Below, in pieces: positions 2,748 through 59,687 of a DNA stretch of 64,000 nucleotides. The position numbers were made by a program, and so were the translations under genes. Source of the stretch: Alphaproteobacteria bacterium (GTDB lineage Bacteria > Pseudomonadota > Alphaproteobacteria > RF32 > CAG-239); assembly GCA_017501665.1 (NCBI GenBank), contig JAFVWM010000043.1, forward strand, positions 24,541 to 88,540, given 5' to 3'. Position 1 is the stretch's first letter. Each line of letters starts with the position of its first letter. The notes beneath the pieces are model-generated. The model did no database searches and was not told the origin of the DNA. It worked only from the letters and a program-made list of their open reading frames with translations.

Positions 2748-3201
2748 ATAATCAAAAAGTTAAATATCTTATCCACAAAAACACCAAAATCTGTGTATAA
2801 AAACTGATTTCAAAACATATTCAAAAATATATTACCAATATACAAAATAAAAGTTACAAAGTTATAAACATTCTAATTTTATATAAACAAACTGTTGATA
2901 AATTTTTTTTCAAAAATCATTGATAAAACACTTTAAATGAATATATCTGAAGAGATTCAAAATATTAAGAAAATATTAAATCTCGGATTCTATCAACTTT
3001 ATCAACAGATAAATAGTTGTGCAAAACTTTGTTACAAAAAAATAATCCACAAATCTAACAACGATATACTAATAACAACTATTTTTTTAAATATATATTT
3101 GGTCATTCGGTGTGTGAATAAAAATAATTGACTTTTATTTATAAAACCAATATATAAATTCATGTAATTTATTCTATATTATATTTCCCAAAAAGGTAAA
3201 C

Positions 3202-5925: not shown

Positions 5926-6582
5926 TTAAATAATGTTTAGTATAAAATTTTCAACATCTCGCATATCTTCAAAAATATTTTTGATACCAAGTTTTTTTAT
6001 GTCTTCCAAGAAGTATTTTTTACTATATTTAACAAAGGCAACAGGTATCATACCTGCTCTTTGTGCAGCTGTCAAACCGGCAACAGAATCTTCAATAACT
6101 ATGCAATCTTCAGGTTTGAATCCCATTTTTTTTGCAGCCAATAAAAATATGTCAGGTTCAGGTTTTCCTTTTATTACCATATCAGAGGTAAAAACAGATT
6201 CATATGGAAAATATTTTTCAATATTTACTATTTTCATTTTATTTTTTGTTTTTTCCAAAATTCCGCCTGTTGCAATATATTGCTTTATTTTTTTATTACT
6301 AAAGATATTTTCAATATATTCTGTCAAAGCAAAACCGTTTTTTGCTTTATCTTTATCTCTTAATAAAGCATCTTTCCAAAAATTATTATTAACATTTATA
6401 CCTAATTTTTTCAAAACAATATCTTTATCTTTATCACTCATACCGCCGATAAGGCTCATTGCTTTCTCAAAAGTAAAATCAATCCCTAAATATTCTTTTA
6501 ATAATTCAACTCGTGATTGTACCCATAATTTTTCTGTATCGGCAATAACGCCATCAAAATCCCATATCACTAATTTTTGCAT
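5926..6582 (-). CDS. HAD-superfamily phosphatase (beta-phosphoglucomutase/phosphoglycolate phosphatase-like)
   Basis: Motif I WDFDGVIADTE. Motif IV IVIEDSVAG. Confidence 0.75.
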   Translation of the reverse strand: MQKLVIWDFDGVIADTEKLWVQSRVELLKEYLGIDFTFEKAMSLIGGMSDKDKDIVLKKLGINVNNNFWKDALLRDKDKAKNGFALTEYIENIFSNKKIKQYIATGGILEKTKNKMKIVNIEKYFPYESVFTSDMVIKGKPEPDIFLLAAKKMGFKPEDCIVIEDSVAGLTAAQRAGMIPVAFVKYSKKYFLEDIKKLGIKNIFEDMRDVENFILNII

Positions 6583-6759
6583 AAAAACTCCTTAAAAAAA
6601 ACGAGCTCGTATAAAGCTCACAGAAAGATTTTTTAACGATTCTATGATAGAATTATTAAAAAACAATAAAAACACGCTGTAGAGTCAAAAAACACCCTTT
6701 TTTATGCTTGCAACATTTTTTGAATAATTTTATAACTCTATGCAAAGAGGAAATAAAAA

Positions 6760-15236: not shown

Positions 15237-15698
15237 GTGAAAGAAATGTTAAGAGAACTAGTTTGTAAAACAGAAAAAGATACCGCTAAATTAGCTTGTG
15301 AATTTGCAAAAACAGCAAAAAAAGGAGATGTTTTTGCTTTATATGGTACGTTAGGCATGGGAAAAAGCGTTTTTGCCAGAGCTTTTATTCAAGCTTTATG
15401 TGATGTTGATGATGTTCCAAGCCCGACATTTACTCTGTTGCAAACTTATTCTTCACCGAAAGGAGATATATATCATTTTGATTTGTACCGACTAAAACAT
15501 CCTGATGAGGTTTTTGAGCTAGGTTTTGAAGATGCACTTTATAACGGAATAACTCTTATAGAATGGCCTGAAAATGCCGGCGGTTGGTTGCCTAAAAATA
15601 TTATAAAAATAAGTATTGTTTCACATGAAACAGGACGGCTTTTTACTATAGAAACCTTATCAGAAGAACAAGCGACTAAACCGGAGTGTGTAAGATGA
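15237..15698 (+). CDS. tsaE: tRNA threonylcarbamoyladenosine biosynthesis protein TsaE
   Basis: GTLGMGKSVFAR P-loop. SPTFTL and HFDLYRL motifs. GTG start at 15237, or ATG at 15246. Confidence 0.85.
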   Translation: MKEMLRELVCKTEKDTAKLACEFAKTAKKGDVFALYGTLGMGKSVFARAFIQALCDVDDVPSPTFTLLQTYSSPKGDIYHFDLYRLKHPDEVFELGFEDALYNGITLIEWPENAGGWLPKNIIKISIVSHETGRLFTIETLSEEQATKPECVR

Positions 15699-16108
15699 GC
15701 CAAAACATACACGCAACTTGTGTAAACATCGATTCTAAAGGTGTTTTGATTTTGGGTGATTCCGGAAGTGGTAAATCTGATTTGGCTTTAAGGCTTTTAA
15801 CATTGTTTTCGGCAAAACTTGTTAGTGATGACAGAACAGATATTTTTAAGGATTTAGATGTTATAAAAGCAAAAGCACCAAACGTCTTAAAAGGGCTGTT
15901 AGAGGTTAGGGGTGTTGGTGTTATAAAACAAGAATATCTGAAAGAATCAACGATTGACTTAGTCATAAAATTAACAAATGAAAAAATAGAAAGAATGCCT
16001 TTACCGCAAAAGTACAAAATAGAAGATATAGATGTACCTATGTATTATATAAATCCTTTTGAATCGTCGGCACCATCAAAAATAGTAACAATACTAAGTT
16101 TGCTGTGA
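15695..16108 (+). CDS. hprK: HPr kinase/phosphorylase, short alphaproteobacterial form (C-terminal kinase domain only)
   Basis: GVLILGDSGSGKSDLALRL P-loop plus the LEVRGVGV motif. About 137 aa. 4-nt overlap with tsaE. Confidence 0.75.
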   Translation: MSQNIHATCVNIDSKGVLILGDSGSGKSDLALRLLTLFSAKLVSDDRTDIFKDLDVIKAKAPNVLKGLLEVRGVGVIKQEYLKESTIDLVIKLTNEKIERMPLPQKYKIEDIDVPMYYINPFESSAPSKIVTILSLL

Positions 16109-48295: not shown

Positions 48296-48460
48296 TTAAT
48301 AACCGCCACAACCGCAACCTTTAGATGTTGATTCGGTAGATTCCGAATTTTTGGAAGAATTGTTTGCATCTTTTTCAGCTGAAGCAGACATAGATTTTGC
48401 TTGTTTTGAAGAAGCAGATTTCATAGAAGAAGACGAAGAATCTCTCATATCTTTACACAT
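48296..48460 (-). CDS. Unannotated small ORF encoding a 54-aa Ser-rich hydrophilic peptide that ends in KGCGCGGY
   Basis: Absent from the six-frame ORF track. ATG with an aggagt RBS 8 nt upstream. Imperfect hairpin downstream at 48238-48273. Sequence MCKDMRDSSSSSMKSASSKQAKSMSASAEKDANNSSKNSESTESTSKGCGCGGY. Confidence 0.45.
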   Translation of the reverse strand: MCKDMRDSSSSSMKSASSKQAKSMSASAEKDANNSSKNSESTESTSKGCGCGGY

Positions 48461-48552: not shown

Positions 48553-49473
48553 CTACATATTACGCGGTTTGAATATACCGTCTTCAAAACCTTGTATTTG
48601 AGAGTTTTCTTCAGCCATTTCTAACCGCGTTAAAGCAAGAGCGACATATTCTTTTTCTTTTTCGATACCGATAAATTTGCGATTAAGTTTTTTTGCAACT
48701 ACTGCGGTGGTTCCCGAACCTAAAAACGGATCAAAAATCACATCGCCTTCATCAGAAGATGCCAAAACGAGCTTAGCAATAAGTTTTTCCGGTTTTTGAG
48801 TGGGATGATCGGTATTCTCACGCATAGACCAAAAAGGAACGGATATATCTGTCCAGACATTTGACGGATGAGTTAAACGCAGTTTTTTATTGCCTTTTTC
48901 AAACCAGTCTTTCGGAACACCGTCGTCGTTGCGATAAGGAGCGATAACCTCGCGCAAAACTTTAACTCTGTCCAAATAAAATTTATAATTTTTGCTTTTG
49001 GTAAAAAACCAAATATCTTCCAAACAATTTTTCCAATTATTTAGAGCTCCGCGACCTTTTTCTCTTTCCCATGATATACGATTTTGCAAAACAAAATACT
49101 TGCCGGCAATATAAGGAATGGCAATAGATGTTTTCCAATCAGCACATATATAGACCGAGGCATTATCTTTTAACAATCTGACGGTTTTTTTAAGCCATTT
49201 ATCCAGCCACTTTGCATAATCGTCATTATTCATTTCATGAAAAGTTGATTTTCCGAAGTTTTTGGTAAGGTTATAAGGGGGATCAACAATCATCAAATCA
49301 ACACAGTTATCCGGAAGTTTGTCCATCGCATTAAGAGAATCTTGCCAAATAACTTTGTTTACAACATCTTCAAAACAGGCATTTTTTGTCAGTTTCACGG
49401 CGCAAGAAACAAGACTGGAAACTTGTTTTTTTTCCAGTCTTATAGTTTTGTTTCGAGATGTTTTTTGAAGCAA
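48553..49473 (-). CDS. ccrM: Orphan adenine-specific (beta-class, DPPY) DNA methyltransferase, CcrM-like
   Basis: Motif IV VDLMIVDPPYNL, N-terminal in the sequence before the SAM motif FDPFLGSGTT (beta-class order). No adjacent restriction endonuclease. Confidence 0.75.
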   Translation of the reverse strand: MLQKTSRNKTIRLEKKQVSSLVSCAVKLTKNACFEDVVNKVIWQDSLNAMDKLPDNCVDLMIVDPPYNLTKNFGKSTFHEMNNDDYAKWLDKWLKKTVRLLKDNASVYICADWKTSIAIPYIAGKYFVLQNRISWEREKGRGALNNWKNCLEDIWFFTKSKNYKFYLDRVKVLREVIAPYRNDDGVPKDWFEKGNKKLRLTHPSNVWTDISVPFWSMRENTDHPTQKPEKLIAKLVLASSDEGDVIFDPFLGSGTTAVVAKKLNRKFIGIEKEKEYVALALTRLEMAEENSQIQGFEDGIFKPRNM

Positions 49474-50235: not shown

Positions 50236-51987
50236 ATGCAAAAAAAACCACTCGGCTTTATTTACTATTATATCAAAGATTTTAAATACACTCTTTTATT
50301 CATAGTTCTTTTAATCGTTATAGCCCGAAGCCTCACGCAGATCGGCTTTTATCTTTCGGCCAAATTGTTCAGTTGGGCCGGAACGGAATTTCAAAATCCT
50401 GACTATTGGCAAGTAATGATAATGCTGTTAAGCGGTTTTGTTGCCTTAGATTTAATCGGGCATCTTTTTCAGACATGGTCGTTGTATATATCCGGAAAAG
50501 TAATACCTCACATCAGATCGTTGGTTATAAAAGACACTTTTGATTATGTTAACAAACAATCTATTTCTTATTTTGCTAACGAAATGACGGGTAATATTTC
50601 AAACAAATTTAATCAGCTTCAAAATAGTGTTGCCGAATTTTTTATGCATGCAAGCAACATTCTTTTTGATCTGTGTTATCTTTTGGTTAACATCGCTATT
50701 TTATTTTATGTCAATTGGATTTTAGGTGTGGCGGTTATATTATGGACAGTACTGATAGTGTATTGTGGTAAATATTTTGGTCTAAAACGGGCAGAGCTTT
50801 CTCGCAAAACATCTTCGGAACAAAGTTTATCAAATGCCCGAATAGTCGATTCCATAGCTAATTATTCCGAAATAAAAAGTTTTGCTAATTTTAAGTACGA
50901 AAGAATAAATTTATTAAAAGTTTTACGCAAATGGCGTCACGCCGAAACCTATGAACAAAAACAGCGCAATATGATAATGATGTCATTGGGTTTGATATCG
51001 GTATTTTCCGGTGCGTTTTTTAGTTTTTTTGCATTAGTGCTTTTTTATAACAAACAGCTTGATTTAACCGGATTTATTTTTGTTTTGACCATAATAACCC
51101 GTTTTAGCGGGCTTGCATTTGGTGTAAACTGGGCGGTAAATAATCTTTCTCGTGTTTTTGGTGTTATTAAATCGGCTTTAGAAACCTTGGCGGTCGAACC
51201 TGAAATTACCGATTCTGCAAATGCCAAAGAACTACACGCAAAAAAGGCAGAAATAACATTTGAAAACGTTGTGTTTGCTTATCAAAACGGTAATATTATT
51301 TTTTCCGACTTTAATCTTAAAATAAAAGCAGGAGAAAAGGTAGGCATTGTCGGTTCGTCAGGCGCCGGAAAATCAACATTAATAAAATTGATTGCTCGTT
51401 ATTTTGATACAACTTCAGGCTGTGTTAAAATAAACGGCGTTAACATTAAAGACATTACACAAGATTCTCTGCACAAGCATATATCAACGATTCCACAAGA
51501 TGTTTCTTTGTTTAACAGAACATTGGAGGAAAATATTCGCTATGGTAAAACAACCGCAACGACAGAAGAGGTAAAAAAGGCAGCCAAACAAGCCTCCGCC
51601 GATAAATTTATCGAAAAACTTGCCAACGGTTATGAAACTAAGGTGGGCGACAGAGGTGTTATCTTATCAGGAGGCGAACGCCAAAGAATTGCAATAGCTC
51701 GAGCCATATTAAAGAACTCACCTGTTTTAATATTTGATGAAGCCACATCCTCACTCGATTCCGAAAGCGAAAAATATATTCAAGAATCAATGAAAACACT
51801 AATGAAAAACAAAACAGTCATAGCCGTTGCGCATCGTTTATCAACCTTACGTGAAATGGACAGAATAATAGTTCTGGAAAATGGTAAAATAATAGAAGAG
51901 GGAACTCATACCGGATTATTGCGCAAAAAAGGACGTTATGCAAAATTGTTTAAGATGCAGTCTGATGGTTATATTCAAACCAACTAA
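50236..51987 (+). CDS. ABC exporter, fused transmembrane/ATPase (MsbA-like)
   Basis: Six-TM N-terminal domain. Walker A GSSGAGKST. LSGGERQR. Walker B IFDEATS. Confidence 0.85.
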   Translation: MQKKPLGFIYYYIKDFKYTLLFIVLLIVIARSLTQIGFYLSAKLFSWAGTEFQNPDYWQVMIMLLSGFVALDLIGHLFQTWSLYISGKVIPHIRSLVIKDTFDYVNKQSISYFANEMTGNISNKFNQLQNSVAEFFMHASNILFDLCYLLVNIAILFYVNWILGVAVILWTVLIVYCGKYFGLKRAELSRKTSSEQSLSNARIVDSIANYSEIKSFANFKYERINLLKVLRKWRHAETYEQKQRNMIMMSLGLISVFSGAFFSFFALVLFYNKQLDLTGFIFVLTIITRFSGLAFGVNWAVNNLSRVFGVIKSALETLAVEPEITDSANAKELHAKKAEITFENVVFAYQNGNIIFSDFNLKIKAGEKVGIVGSSGAGKSTLIKLIARYFDTTSGCVKINGVNIKDITQDSLHKHISTIPQDVSLFNRTLEENIRYGKTTATTEEVKKAAKQASADKFIEKLANGYETKVGDRGVILSGGERQRIAIARAILKNSPVLIFDEATSSLDSESEKYIQESMKTLMKNKTVIAVAHRLSTLREMDRIIVLENGKIIEEGTHTGLLRKKGRYAKLFKMQSDGYIQTN

Positions 51988-54900
51988 AATTTATACATTA
52001 CACTTAAACTGCCGGAGGTATTTTTGTAATCATCACCGACACTGTAAGATCCGGCTATTGAGGCACTAAGAGTTGATGTCATATCAAAAGACATACCTGC
52101 GGAAATCTTTGCTATTGTTCTGTCATCAGCCTGAGCCATAGAGTTTTCACTATCTATAACAAACTCAGAAGTGTCGTCCATAATATGAACAATAGAAGGC
52201 TTAATAAATATTTCGGCACGAGATTCGGGAAACTCCCAACGTTTAGCAAATTTTATACCTGCTTCAATTTCGGTGCGGCTGGCATTATCAAATTCTTGGG
52301 TCTTGCCGGCATTGTCTTCGACCGGATCTATTTCGACGGCCGTATAGCTAATTCTTACACCGGGCTCGATTCTGAGCCCGCTAATGTTTTTATATATATA
52401 GCTGACATCTAATGTTGCACCATAAAGAGTACCTGATGTGCTTGTATTTACATCGTCATTAGTGGATATATCGGCATCAATCATACCGGCATATCCGGCT
52501 AATATAGTTGACCAATTTTGTCCGTCATGACGCAAATAAGCACCGGCTAAATAACTGTTAATAGTAGTTTCGGCCTGACCGATAATTTGATATTGGTCGC
52601 CGTCTTCATCATAATTATACGTACCTTTTCTATAAGAAGCTAATAATCCCAGTTTGGTGTTACCATTACTCATCAAATCTAACCCACCGTCAAAACCGCT
52701 TATATCTGCACCATAAACATATGGAGAATCAATGGTAAGAGAAGTTGTTGCCGGAGCCACCCAACCGGTGAATACCGGTCGATTAGAACGACAAATATCA
52801 GATGCTCCTCTTTTAATATTTTTACAAGGAGCTTTTTGGTATTCGCTTATAGCAATATTATTGCGCAAGCTTTCACCCAAACTGCTTGTTTGCATAAAAG
52901 TATTATCAATTAATCCATAATAAGCTACCGCTTCGGGAACAAGAATATATTTATCACCGCTTATGGCGTTTTTCATAGAAGCAAACCATTGATTATCCTT
53001 AAAAACCGTATCCCAATGATAATACGAACCCTCTACACGATGAATCTTGAACACATTTTCCCCTGATGTGCTGCCTGCTTTGGCAAAGAGAATATCATCT
53101 CTTAAAGACGAACCATCATTAAGCGATGTTAAATATACGCTGGTTGAACCGGAAGCGTTTCCTGTTATAATAATTTTGTCGGCTTTTGCCGAAGCGATAT
53201 CTACATTTAAATTCAACTTAGAATTTGGGTTACCGGTATAATTCCCCTCAATTGTCAAACTGTTACCTGCAGTGTTATCGTTTGCAACAAGGTCGATTGT
53301 ACCGCTGTTGTTTATATCGCCGTTTTTCACGGCAATATTGCCGGAAATAAACAAAGATGAACTTTCATCTATATTCAAAGATCCGCTATTTAGAATTACA
53401 TTGTTGTTCGGAGTAAAAACTGCATTTATTAGTTTTACATCTTTCCACCCTTTAATTTCTGTTGTAGCATAAGATCCATCTTCTAAAAACAAATTATGAT
53501 CAGTACTTGAGTCGTTATTTATAATACCGCTTGCGAATATAGAATTTAATCCGCCGGTAAGCGTCAGATTCGATAAACCTGTACCTTCGGTAAATAACTG
53601 ATTTACATTCAATCCCGTTACATCTTTGCCCACGGTTAAAGTTCCTGTTAATGAGTTATAATCTTGAATGGTAATAATGGAAGAGCCTAAAAAGCTCGCA
53701 TTATTTATAGAAGAACCGGATTGTGCAATAAGCATGCTGTCTTCTTGAAATTTTATATTATTCGCAGTACCGAAGATTGATGCTGTACCGGATTCAAGTA
53801 CAGAGTCATATAAAGTTCCGCCGTCATCAACGTTAATAGTTCCGCTCTCAATGGTTAAGTTTTTTGCTTCATCTGTATCTTTAACTGTAAAAACAGAGTC
53901 GCTTCCTACATAAATCCATTCAGCACTTCCATCTGTAATACTTCCATTATATATAGTTCCGTCTGAAGATGTGGTGTTAATGTTTTCTATTTTATCATTA
54001 GTGGATAAAATAAATTTTCCTCCATCGTTTATAGTTACGTCATTCGCTGTAAAACTTGAATTATCGTCATAGTTTGATTCAAGCATTCCCCCATTTTCAA
54101 CGGTAACATTATTTATTGTACCGCCAACAGTTCCTGTTTCATCATAAAGTACAAGCCTACCACCAGCGTTTACTGTAATAGTTTCTATGGTTCCGCTGGC
54201 TGTATTAGGAACGATATTATTACCTACTGATATAGTGAAGTCATCTGTAACATTGGCGTTTAATAATGTACCTCCGGATAGTGAAATATTTCCTTTTTCT
54301 AAAATAAAATTTCTAGCTGTGGCCGAATCTTTTATTATTAAATCTCCATTTTCTATTTTATTTGTCCCATCATCTTCGGTATCTAAAATAGCACTTCCCG
54401 ATATTTCAACATAACCACCAGCGATAGTTGTGTTATAACCTTTGGCATCATTCTCAAATGTAGCCATAGAACCGGTGTTTATAGAAGAGTTTTTAGTTGT
54501 ACCATTGATGACACTTAAGGTTCCTCCCGTCATAGAAATGTTGTCTATTGTACCATTATCGATGACACTTAAGTTTCCTCCCGTCATAGAAATGCCGGTT
54601 GCCTCAACATTAGCCCCCTCAAGACTTACAAATCCTCCGTTAATTTCAAGTGTTTCAATTTCAGAGTGACCGCGTGCAGTTATATTTCCACCATTAATAG
54701 TTGTCTCTATGAGGGTACTGGTTTCCTCAGACTTTAGCTCTCCGCCCTCCACTGTTGTATCGGTAGCACTTGAATTTCCGGAATATGTTGCAGAACCACC
54801 GTCAGAAATAGTAACATTTGTTGTTGAAGCGTTATCCGAGACTTCCAGAGCGGTATTATCACCACCATCTCCTATCGTTAGACCTTCTTCATGCTCATTT

Positions 54901-55022
54901 CCTGTCAATATAATTTGAGCATAAACCGGTTTAAACCACAAAACAGCCCAACAAAACGTTAGGCATATAAATAATAGAAGTTTATTTTTTATAAAGTTCA
55001 TCGGGTTGGATCCAAACAACAA
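51984..55022 (-). CDS. Autotransporter (type Va) with a repetitive beta-helical passenger
   Basis: Signal peptide. About 650-aa passenger full of GGT/GSxT/N repeats. C-terminal beta-barrel translocator ending in SVMYKF. Confidence 0.8.
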   Translation of the reverse strand: MLFGSNPMNFIKNKLLLFICLTFCWAVLWFKPVYAQIILTGNEHEEGLTIGDGGDNTALEVSDNASTTNVTISDGGSATYSGNSSATDTTVEGGELKSEETSTLIETTINGGNITARGHSEIETLEINGGFVSLEGANVEATGISMTGGNLSVIDNGTIDNISMTGGTLSVINGTTKNSSINTGSMATFENDAKGYNTTIAGGYVEISGSAILDTEDDGTNKIENGDLIIKDSATARNFILEKGNISLSGGTLLNANVTDDFTISVGNNIVPNTASGTIETITVNAGGRLVLYDETGTVGGTINNVTVENGGMLESNYDDNSSFTANDVTINDGGKFILSTNDKIENINTTSSDGTIYNGSITDGSAEWIYVGSDSVFTVKDTDEAKNLTIESGTINVDDGGTLYDSVLESGTASIFGTANNIKFQEDSMLIAQSGSSINNASFLGSSIITIQDYNSLTGTLTVGKDVTGLNVNQLFTEGTGLSNLTLTGGLNSIFASGIINNDSSTDHNLFLEDGSYATTEIKGWKDVKLINAVFTPNNNVILNSGSLNIDESSSLFISGNIAVKNGDINNSGTIDLVANDNTAGNSLTIEGNYTGNPNSKLNLNVDIASAKADKIIITGNASGSTSVYLTSLNDGSSLRDDILFAKAGSTSGENVFKIHRVEGSYYHWDTVFKDNQWFASMKNAISGDKYILVPEAVAYYGLIDNTFMQTSSLGESLRNNIAISEYQKAPCKNIKRGASDICRSNRPVFTGWVAPATTSLTIDSPYVYGADISGFDGGLDLMSNGNTKLGLLASYRKGTYNYDEDGDQYQIIGQAETTINSYLAGAYLRHDGQNWSTILAGYAGMIDADISTNDDVNTSTSGTLYGATLDVSYIYKNISGLRIEPGVRISYTAVEIDPVEDNAGKTQEFDNASRTEIEAGIKFAKRWEFPESRAEIFIKPSIVHIMDDTSEFVIDSENSMAQADDRTIAKISAGMSFDMTSTLSASIAGSYSVGDDYKNTSGSLSVMYKF

Positions 55023-55157
55023 AGTTTATGCATATGCTAACAAGTTAGTACAAAAAACTTAACAGATTGTTACCGATTCCCTTTAACGATTCTAACGATT
55101 CGCCTCAAATCAAGACTCAGATTCGTTTTGAGTCTTATCAAAAATTTTTTCTTTTCT

Positions 55158-55222
55158 GACAGAATCGCAAAAATAAAAAAACAGAATCGCAAAAAAAACA
55201 GAATCGCAAAAACTAAAAAATT
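55158..55222. repeat. Three imperfect tandem copies of ACAGAATCGCAAAAA(n)
   Basis: acagaatcgcaaaaataaaaaa / acagaatcgcaaaaaaa / acagaatcgcaaaaactaaaaaa. Each copy carries a GAATC site. Confidence 0.8.
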
Positions 55223-56444
55223 AAAACGAAATAATCGTATTATTTCTCACTTCTAAAAATTGAGCATCATTTCTTAGCGAATCAAAAAGTTCGGGATTTG
55301 TGGTGGTAATCCATGCCTGAATATTTAAATCGCTAATCTTTTCGAGCAAGGCTTCTCTTTTAACGTCATCTAAATGCGCCGTTACTTCATCAAGTAACAT
55401 AACCGGTGCAAAACCTTGATGTAATGTTTGGCATTTTGTTTGGGCTAAAATAATGCTGACCAGTAAAGATTTCTGCTCTCCGGTTGAACAAAGATCAGCA
55501 GGCATGCCTTTTTTTCGGTAATAAACCTTAAAATCGCTTCTGTTAACACCCTCTAAATTTTCATAATCCAAAATAAAATTACGTTGTTTAGATAACATAT
55601 TTTTATATTCGTCCTCGACCAAAACAGCCGGTTTATTGTCGAGTAACTTTTCAATTTTACCATCCAGTTCAAGTCTGACCGATGGAAACACATCATCAGG
55701 CTCGTTTTCAATGAAGGCGTTTAATCTTGCTATTTGCTCGCGTCGAGCTGCTGCAATAGCTACTCCGGTTGTCGCCATATTTTCTTCTATTGAATCAAGC
55801 CAATGATTATCGTTTTTGCCTTCCTTTAGCAATCTGAACCTTTCTCTGTACAAATGCTCGAAAGTAGCCGTCCTTTTGGCATGTTCCATATCAAAAGCAT
55901 ACACTAACCTATCTAAAAATGAGCGTCTGGGTTGGCTTCCGCCTCTAAAAAGCCTATCCATTTGCGGAGTAAGCCAAGTCGCCGAGAAATATTTACCCAA
56001 ATCACCTTGTGAGGCAAGCTTTGTATTATCAACCTTGACTATGCGTCGTTCAAAAGAGCGAAATTCTTCGTTCTCACAATCATCTTTTGCTGATTTTTCG
56101 ACAGCAGTTGCAATCGTATATATTTCATCATTCTTTATAACATCTGCCGCCACTGCCCAATTTAACGGCGAAATGAACGAATATTCATTTTTACCGGTAA
56201 TTTGCGGAATAAAACGTTTTATATCAGCAAGTCTTGCCCCCCTAAGACCTCTTCCCGGTGTCAAAAAAGATATAGCTTCTAAGATATTAGTTTTTCCCGA
56301 ACCGTTTTCACCATAGACGACAATCGGAGCAATTTCTGTTTTTAACCTTAATGAAGCATAATTCCTAAAGTCAGTTAAAGTCAGGCGTTCGACACCTGAC
56401 TTTAACTTTGTTAAATTAGCTAAATTTTCGGCTAAATTGTTCAT
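55221..56444 (-). CDS. recF: DNA replication and repair protein RecF
   Basis: Walker A GENGSGKTNILEA. SMC-like signature. dnaA-dnaN-recF order. Confidence 0.9.
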   Translation of the reverse strand: MNNLAENLANLTKLKSGVERLTLTDFRNYASLRLKTEIAPIVVYGENGSGKTNILEAISFLTPGRGLRGARLADIKRFIPQITGKNEYSFISPLNWAVAADVIKNDEIYTIATAVEKSAKDDCENEEFRSFERRIVKVDNTKLASQGDLGKYFSATWLTPQMDRLFRGGSQPRRSFLDRLVYAFDMEHAKRTATFEHLYRERFRLLKEGKNDNHWLDSIEENMATTGVAIAAARREQIARLNAFIENEPDDVFPSVRLELDGKIEKLLDNKPAVLVEDEYKNMLSKQRNFILDYENLEGVNRSDFKVYYRKKGMPADLCSTGEQKSLLVSIILAQTKCQTLHQGFAPVMLLDEVTAHLDDVKREALLEKISDLNIQAWITTTNPELFDSLRNDAQFLEVRNNTIISF

Positions 56445-59119: not shown

Positions 59120-59687
59120 TTCTACTCCCCAATTTATTCTTATAAAAATTAAAACCTAAATCAGTTACAATACTATTTGTTATAGCTAAAAACGAAAATT
59201 TTGCCGTTTAATTATAAAAGACCATAGTTTATTTCTTAAAATCTTTCTTAAATATTCCCCTTATTTATAAAAGATTCTGTTTATACAGTTTTTATAAAAT
59301 TAAAAAGCAAGCTTTCTGTCTTATTTTAAACCATCATTACTGGATGTTTGTATCAAATCGCTTTAGTTAAATTTCATAAATATAAAACTGACAACTAATA
59401 CTTAAGACTATTCTGTCGCGCATTTCGGCAAAGCCGAGCATTTTCACTATTCTTTATCCTTCGGATTCGAAAGTTTTGATTCTGAGGATGTAGCGTTTAG
59501 TAAACTAAAAAAATTTTTAAGTATTCAAAAGCTTTCCTAAAAACAAAATCAAAACCCTCTTACAAAGTGATTTGGATATTAGAACAAAAAAAAAGAAAAA
59601 CAACAGAACTTTTGTAGAACATTGCAATTAAATTTCTTGACAGCGATTCTTCAAGAGTCGGACGGATTCTGCCTGTTTTAGACGAAA

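Follow-up and report, generated by a model that had tools for sequence, protein, structure and literature searches.

A conserved GANTC-dense candidate control module in front of a surface autotransporter gene in uncultured gut Alphaproteobacteria

Why does the short spacer between recF and a surface autotransporter gene of an alphaproteobacterium hold so many copies of GANTC, and what could they do there? GANTC is the methylation motif of the Alphaproteobacteria, and promoters under methylation or cell-cycle control have been well studied in Caulobacter, Brucella and rhizobia, whereas almost nothing is known of them for the uncultured alphaproteobacteria that abound in the human gut. An earlier note on this locus had suggested that methylation state or the cell cycle controls the autotransporter, which is plausible on the comparisons set out below, or that a change in repeat number does so. 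The comparisons start from the window, a stretch of 64,000 nucleotides whose numbering is used throughout, and extend to related loci (L numbers) of uncultured gut Alphaproteobacteria, e.g. 'Proteobacteria bacterium CAG:495'.

The autotransporter combines a signal peptide, a variable passenger domain and a C-terminal beta-barrel, the organization of type Va secretion, and its relatives carry AIDA repeats (PF16168). Translation probably begins at the ATG at 55001, ahead of the Sec-type signal peptide MNFIKNKLLLFICLTFCWAVLWFKPVYA, and the spacer therefore comprises the 219 bp from 55002 to 55220. On the minus strand the gene order is fpg, enoyl-CoA hydratase, rpsT, dnaA, dnaN, recF, spacer and autotransporter, and past the autotransporter lie a convergent ABC exporter gene and then the genes for EIIA(Man), HPr, a DNA methyltransferase and LolA. 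The autotransporter is hypervariable. Even the proteins of strains with identical RecF (the window and L001-L003) are only 84-85% identical and range from 916 to 1023 aa, and species-level orthologues share 34-60% identity as against 73-91% for RecF.

Within 131 bp of the spacer (55075-55205) there are nine GANTC sites, four of them GATTC, three GAATC and one each GACTC and GAGTC in plus-strand letters. The earlier note had been right about a dense cluster but had counted ten sites, although its own list sums to nine. Shuffling the spacer with preservation of dinucleotides (n=5000) averaged 0.74 +/- 0.82 sites and never exceeded 5, and outside this cluster a 131-bp stretch of the window contains 3 at most. 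The window as a whole has 153 GANTC sites, one per 418 bp and slightly fewer than its dinucleotide-preserving shuffles (184 +/- 12); the majority of its other intergenic regions have none at all, and its remaining intergenic DNA has about one per 300-400 bp. The comparison with background for which the earlier note had called thus sets the spacer clearly apart. The same holds for relatives, as 14 autotransporter-upstream spacers contain 101 GANTC sites in 3293 bp, one per 33 bp, versus one per 393 bp elsewhere in those 14 loci. This corresponds to an approximately tenfold local enrichment of the methylation motif.

How is this DNA organized? An alignment of 17 sequences, 13 from recF-locus genomes and four from genomes with the gene after rpsA, gives a common layout on the minus strand. 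It starts with zero to three copies of TTTGCGATTC(G/T)G, followed by an A/T-rich spacer, found at the corresponding position in all relatives, and by the GACTC-N5-GAATC element, from which 17-18 bp lead to GCGAATCG and a further 16 bp to G(G/C)GAATC (17 bp in the sole rpsA-type genome that retains this third motif); then come (G/A)TAA-N7-TTAA and, after 11 nt, TANNNT. The positions in the window are collected in Table 1. Three core GAATC sites, 22-24 bp apart (about -42, -64 and -87 relative to the predicted transcription start), form the centre of this layout. GAATCG of core site 2 is invariant in all 17 sequences, with its distance to core site 1 fixed at 17-18 bp, and core site 3 is invariant in 13 of 13 aligned recF-locus genomes and lost or altered in three of the four genomes with the gene after rpsA. 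An extra site at 55088 is present only in the window, L001-L011 and L175. Relative to the predicted start, the nine GANTC centres of the window fall at -42, -55, -64, -81, -87, -97, -129, -151 and -168.

Table 1. Features of the spacer and its neighbouring genes in the window; positions with a minus sign are relative to the predicted transcription start.
Feature	Position	Strand	Description
Beta-class DNA methyltransferase, orphan	48553..49473	-	306 aa; PF01555 3.6e-47
Autotransporter gene	51984..55001	-	1005 aa; PF03797 9.5e-20, TIGR01414 3.4e-23
-10-like hexamer	55042..55047	-	TAACTT (TANNNT)
CtrA-like dyad	55059..55073	-	GTAA-N7-TTAA (plus strand TTAA-N7-TTAC)
Core site 3	55075..55079	-	GGAATCG, abuts dyad; centre about -42
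Extra lineage-specific site	55088..55092	-	AGAATCG; centre about -55
Core site 2	55096..55102	-	CGAATCG, full C-GANTC-G palindrome; centre about -64
GACTC-N5-GAATC element	55114..55134	-	GACTCAAAACGAATCTGAGTC
Core site 1	55120-55124	-	AAAACGAATC, about -87; CGAATC invariant in 17/17 relatives
A/T-rich spacer	55135..55158	-	CAGAAAAGAAAAAATTTTTGATAA
Distal repeats	55159..55212	-	three copies of TTTTTGCGATTCTGT (minus-strand reading), TRF
GATTC sites	55075, 55088, 55097, 55120		plus-strand letters
GACTC site	55114		
GAGTC site	55130		
GAATC sites	55162, 55184, 55201		within tandem repeats
recF	55221..56444	-	TIGR00611; last gene of the dnaA-dnaN-recF group

Is this conserved element read as RNA or as DNA? 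In the lineage of the window a GAGTC arm creates a 6-bp inverted repeat within the GACTC-N5-GAATC element, and since the corresponding hairpin (GACTCA...TGAGTC) exists in some lineages only, the element is conserved as sequence and not as structure. Moreover, a search of Rfam with 54500-55700 returned no family, and RNAalifold on the 17 sequences gave -0.64 kcal/mol without covariation or conserved structure, which excludes an RNA element or leader. Together with the lineage-restricted hairpin these results argue for protein-binding sites in DNA. Short invariant motifs joined by spacers of fixed length but variable sequence show that the module is a DNA-level element.

The part of the module next to the gene looks like a promoter. 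All 17 sequences share the T, A and final T of TANNNT, always 11 nt past TTAA, and conservation ends just downstream; a start predicted from this hexamer would fall at about 55035, 34 nt ahead of the ATG. No -35 hexamer is found 16-18 bp upstream of TANNNT, where the dyad is located instead, and a generic scan for sigma-70 promoters and terminators detected no -35/-10 pair, canonical promoter or terminator within the spacer. We infer that TANNNT is a predicted -10 element that works without a -35 hexamer. The dyad spans about -38 to -24. Its TAA-N7-TTAA is invariant in all 17 sequences and its first base is G or A, so that the first half is never TTAA, and in the window it fits the CtrA box TTAA-N7-TTAA at seven of eight positions. 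Full CtrA motifs of Caulobacter have their 5' base near -39 (PMC4287350). A CtrA-like box had been proposed here before and does exist, at 55059-55073 and not at 55062-55077 as then given; it is retained in every aligned relative and, relative to the -10-like TANNNT, lies where the box of a CtrA-activated promoter would be expected. The dyad is thus a putative CtrA-type site for class II activation, its 5' base lying at about -38. A tblastn search with approximate CtrA, GcrA and MucR queries found no match in the window and loci L001-L047, a share of each genome far too small to indicate absence.

To which gene does the module belong? It begins 8 bp past the recF stop codon, at a distance of about 52 kb to the probable oriC, and three species (L014, L016, L020) have it intact with neither an autotransporter ORF nor a conserved small ORF behind it. 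It could accordingly be pictured as serving the dnaA-dnaN-recF operon as a terminator or insulator, or as a cluster of sites for a replication-associated protein. Among 37 related species the cluster is found behind recF in the eleven nearest ones (RecF identity of 73% or more), with 4-9 GANTC sites in the 400 bp past the recF stop codon. Most relatives, however, have recF without the module, and in the more distant ones recF is directly followed by an ABC or EIIA gene. Furthermore, module and autotransporter occur together in three contexts, which are the recF locus, the same locus with another gene inserted behind recF, and the rpsA locus. The module is always directly upstream of the autotransporter, and six loci (L169, L170, L172, L174, L175, L176) have it without an adjacent recF. 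In L169, L170, L174 and L175, with a GC content of 42-46%, autotransporter homologues of only 26-30% identity lie behind cmk-rpsA, and the module that precedes them contains 7-11 GANTC sites. A Collar-domain gene (phage tail, PF07484; L176 1995-2708, L172 2-520) separates recF from the autotransporter in L176 and L172, and the module is found past the terminator of the inserted gene, directly upstream of the autotransporter, whereas the recF-adjacent spacer of L176 contains no GANTC at all. The absence of a terminator from the spacer and the poor conservation of the hairpin also speak against an operon terminator. The rpsA-linked and Collar-gene contexts rule out a functional tie to recF, and an element serving recF or the chromosome is scarcely credible. 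By its position and its travels with the PF03797 gene the spacer 55002-55220 is the predicted 5' control module of the autotransporter gene itself, in agreement with the earlier placement of the cluster in the regulatory region of that gene. The three species that retain the module alone could have lost the gene recently, or the module could have an additional role there.

Several observations concern the history of the site. That some relatives have the Collar gene inserted behind recF, ahead of the module, suggests a hotspot for insertions and deletions. A dnaK-linked homologue of the autotransporter (L168) has no upstream GANTC, and hence not every member of the protein family is preceded by the module. 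In L013 (2606-3395 and 3396-6533) a second autotransporter gene is located upstream of dnaN and has a different cluster of seven GANTC sites rich in GACTC and GAGTC, and the sister genome L012 contains a partly decayed copy of the module at about 6555-6660 with no gene there. In all, about 20 genomes have the module; they belong to uncultured gut Alphaproteobacteria, and their autotransporters are only 26-60% identical. A metagenome scan for GAATCGGTAAN7TTAA gave only chance matches among the matches listed, none of them with upstream phased sites.

Could the distal repeats switch the gene by a change in their number? The tandem repeat described earlier is present, as a 15-bp unit ACAGAATCGCAAAAA in three exact copies (55159-55173, 55181-55195 and 55198-55212; periods 22 and 17 bp according to TRF), each with CGATTCT on the minus strand and with predicted centres at about -129, -151 and -168, respectively. 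A phase switch would act by slipped-strand changes in these 17/22-bp repeats or in the A6T5 tract of the A/T-rich spacer. Variation of this kind exists. Copies range from zero to three among species, and ten contigs with identical RecF fall into two haplotypes that have either three copies, like the window, or two, and that also differ by 1 bp in the A6T5 tract. The comparison of strains that the earlier note had called for therefore does reveal variation in copy number, but this variation is not free: in the window and the ten strain contigs the 17-bp indel is fully linked to the 1-bp indel and to a T/C change, and with only two haplotypes this looks like slow lineage divergence. Phase variation by slipped strands typically involves a long tract of short repeats within the core promoter or the open reading frame and freely varying copy numbers. 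Here two or three imperfectly spaced copies are located far upstream, at about -129 to -168 and neither between -35 and -10 nor in the reading frame, and species without any distal copy (L017, L020, L035) nonetheless retain the core. Phase variation by repeat number, as the earlier note had proposed it, is weakly supported, and we regard a switch of this kind as quite improbable.

If the module is a set of protein-binding sites, what might bind it? The conserved unit is wider than GANTC. About 80% of the sites are versions of the palindrome C-GANTC-G: in the 14 spacers 80 of 101 sites are preceded by C or followed by G and 34 are full CGANTCG, as compared to 41% and 3% in the rest of the loci, with a Fisher p of 4.5e-13 that is indicative only, the sequences being phylogenetically related. 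The core sites have A as N throughout, and their flanks are conserved. Such an extended motif with a fixed N suggests a sequence-specific reader and not just a target of methylation. In the window seven of nine sites match the GcrA consensus YGAKTCK, which is that of Caulobacter, versus 47 of 144 (33%) elsewhere, and this points to a candidate reader protein with GcrA-like specificity. GcrA boxes of Caulobacter act at -20, at -30 or between +5 and +30 and are usually single (PMC9976885). The nine boxes of the window, with predicted centres from -42 to -168, lie outside these positions, which speaks against GcrA-type action, although GAATCG or GATTC does occur downstream of the dyad in some relatives.

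Three further observations speak indirectly for a role of GANTC in the clade. For enrichment in intergenic over coding DNA it ranks first of 24 control pentamers (1.95 in 625 kb, 2.94 in the window), and an intergenic bias of GANTC has been described for CcrM-bearing orders; in the window the enrichment is no longer distinctive once two cluster spacers are removed. Upstream of dnaA, a triple GAATC-N5-GACTC-N5/6-GA(A/C)TC with variable N at the third site is kept in most of the clade. In the rpsT-dnaA spacer of the window GATTC, GAGTC and GATTC (plus strand) lie at 59645-59669, just past the rpsT terminator, and next to the triple, at 59606-59620, GAAC-N7-GAAC (GTTC-N7-GTTC on the dnaA strand) resembles the alphaproteobacterial LexA box. 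The probable oriC at 2748-3201, between coaE and rho with mnmE, gidA, gidB and parB following, has six matches to the DnaA box in 350 bp, one of them perfect (2769), and the GC skew changes from negative to positive nearby. With DnaA boxes clustering at 2769-3121, a replication origin at the autotransporter spacer is ruled out. In addition, the probable oriC contains a perfect CtrA box TTAA-N7-TTAA (TTAAgaaaataTTAA, 2965-2979) with GATTC on either side (2954 and 2986), which is indirect support for the organism encoding CtrA.

Who could write the methyl mark? The candidate is the beta-class methyltransferase encoded 5 kb from the module, which has the N6-adenine core in the order DPPY (near residue 64) and FLGSGTT (near residue 250). 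No restriction-enzyme gene adjoins it and it is vertically conserved, as expected of an orphan enzyme. Most of the 37 related genomes encode it in synteny and with 68-91% identity, which is similar to that of RecF; the order EIIA(Man)-HPr-methyltransferase-small ORF-LolA recurs in nearly all related genomes whose locus is that long, and close homologues of 304-315 aa make up more than 120 protein clusters at least 70% identical. The earlier description as a CcrM-like orphan methyltransferase is correct for the gene and its orphan status but does not extend to orthology with CcrM. With the NCBIfam CcrM model NF050803 the enzyme reaches 114 bits, short of the 830 required, and with the best NCBIfam model, PRK11524 (YhdJ), 170 bits, below its cut-off of 292. 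Among PDB entries M.BceJIV (5e-36) and MboIIA (1e-32) rank before CcrM (1.5e-24). Members of the CcrM family have a conserved extra C-terminal domain of about 80 residues (PMC3973325, PMC6787082). This domain is missing from the window enzyme, whose alignment stops at its residue 284 and at residue 258 of the 366 residues of CcrM, and the alignment also lacks the CcrM insertion after DPPY. The bit score, the missing domain and insertion and the closer M.BceJIV and MboIIA rule out that the enzyme is a CcrM orthologue. In this respect the enzyme is like M.BceJIV and YhdJ, which are of similar length and likewise lack the C-terminal domain of CcrM. M.BceJIV, whose target is GTWWAC, is reported to be an orphan methyltransferase. 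As its base-reading residues are mostly replaced in the window enzyme (R180K, L182W, W188K, R203V, H205F, Q207S, T106D, Q108K, H147L), GTWWAC is an unlikely specificity here too and the target is probably a different one. An orphan methyltransferase this well conserved may have functionally replaced CcrM. Its start abuts the stop of the HPr gene (49473/49474), behind EIIA(Man), so that it is apparently co-transcribed with regulatory genes of the PTS-Ntr type.

Some neighbouring observations may be added. Between the methyltransferase gene and lolA a conserved ORF of 54 aa (48296-48460, minus strand), Ser-rich and ending in GCGCGGY, contains three GANTC sites and is called as a gene in L001-L003. 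A short HPr-kinase gene is found at 15686-16108. At 37038-37646 (plus strand) the window encodes a 202-aa protein with an OmpR-type winged-helix domain (PF00486) and no receiver domain at E <= 1e-5, which comes after a 358-aa protein without a Pfam match.

How could these elements work together? The reading that we favour, and hold to be somewhat probable, is a conserved control module of the autotransporter in which a CtrA-type site and a methylation-sensitive reader of extended GANTC tie expression to the cell cycle. The promoter would depend on an activator bound at the CtrA-type site in the -35 position, with TANNNT as -10 element and no -35 hexamer. The three core sites would lie on one face of the helix and, together with the distal repeats, would be bound by the reader. 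If the GANTC adenines are methylated, as they are in most Alphaproteobacteria, binding of the reader would depend on the methylation state and expression of the surface protein would thereby be linked to replication and cell cycle. Alternatively, methylase and regulator may compete for the sites, which could lead to heritable ON/OFF heterogeneity. A full switch of the agn43 or pap type, in which the 306-aa non-CcrM orphan would methylate C-GANTC-G in competition with a regulator at the three phased sites beside the CtrA-type site and the whole would move with the gene as a cassette, seems unlikely on present comparisons.

Does methylation have to be involved at all? The fixed A at N and the conserved flanks would be explained equally well by a transcription factor blind to methylation, and C-GA(A/T)TC-G may simply be the site of a dimeric regulator, of the OmpR family for instance, in which the embedded GANTC is incidental. 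For such an operator array speak invariant positions that reach beyond GANTC, the strict 22-24-bp phasing, which is typical of cooperative protein binding, the failure to find a CcrM orthologue and the location of the sites outside the positional window of GcrA. Against it, lineage-specific GANTC sites keep appearing at non-homologous positions of the spacer, and GACTC and GAGTC variants are found beside GAATC and GATTC. The conservation of GANTC with varying N at dnaA and around the CtrA box of the probable oriC and the retention of the core orphan methyltransferase throughout the clade likewise disfavour it. A methylation-independent array is therefore a serious possibility, though in our view a rather doubtful one. 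The methylation-sensitive, cell-cycle-tied module remains the preferred reading. Whichever protein reads it, a non-coding module that is more conserved than its surface protein and follows the gene to different chromosomal sites is of interest, and conservation, mobility and GANTC density together make it a concrete candidate, open to testing, for epigenetic or cell-cycle regulation of an adhesin-like protein exposed to the host.

Which known systems does the module resemble? Its closest likeness within the Alphaproteobacteria is to the CtrA/CcrM/GcrA promoters of Caulobacter (ctrA P1/P2, ccrM and pilA). Both combine a TTAA-N7-TTAA-like dyad, its 5' base predicted near -38 in the module and located near -39 in Caulobacter, with the lack of a -35 hexamer and with GANTC in the promoter region. 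Moreover, the flanks of the module sites match the Caulobacter GcrA box YGAKTCG, and in both cases extra upstream sites could tune timing; the pilA promoter has one CtrA site at -35 and three further sites upstream. The two differ in the first half of the dyad, which is GTAA or ATAA and never TTAA in the module, and in the number of methylation motifs, as each spacer has 7-11 GANTC sites whereas most Caulobacter promoters have one; among 96 cell-cycle-regulated starts of Caulobacter with GANTC at most 50 bp upstream, 11 have more than one. They also differ in position, the module sites being located upstream of the window in which GcrA is active.

A second likeness is to clusters of the MucR type. 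At P169 of Caulobacter a cluster of four GANTCs is kept hypomethylated through occlusion by MucR, and in Brucella a hypomethylated GANTC site lies beside the autotransporter gene BAB2_1107. As in the module, several GANTC sites are found in the A/T-rich promoter of a gene for a surface or secreted protein, and competition between regulator and methylase, as in MucR-type occlusion, could likewise set local methylation at the module. MucR, however, binds A/T-rich DNA with low specificity, whereas the module consists of fixed, phased and extended motifs.

Finally, outside the Alphaproteobacteria the module recalls two methylation switches of surface structures. The E. coli gene agn43 encodes an AIDA-type autotransporter (Ag43) that is controlled by a Dam/OxyR switch with three GATC sites inside the binding site of the regulator, and AIDA repeats also occur in relatives of the autotransporter of the window. 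The pap operon is governed by a Dam/Lrp switch with two sets of three phased sites. Those switches use GATC and not GANTC, and they belong to another class of methylase and another phylum. The module of this strain resembles them in arrangement, with three phased core sites and three distal sites, of which the distal set, unlike the core, is not conserved among relatives.
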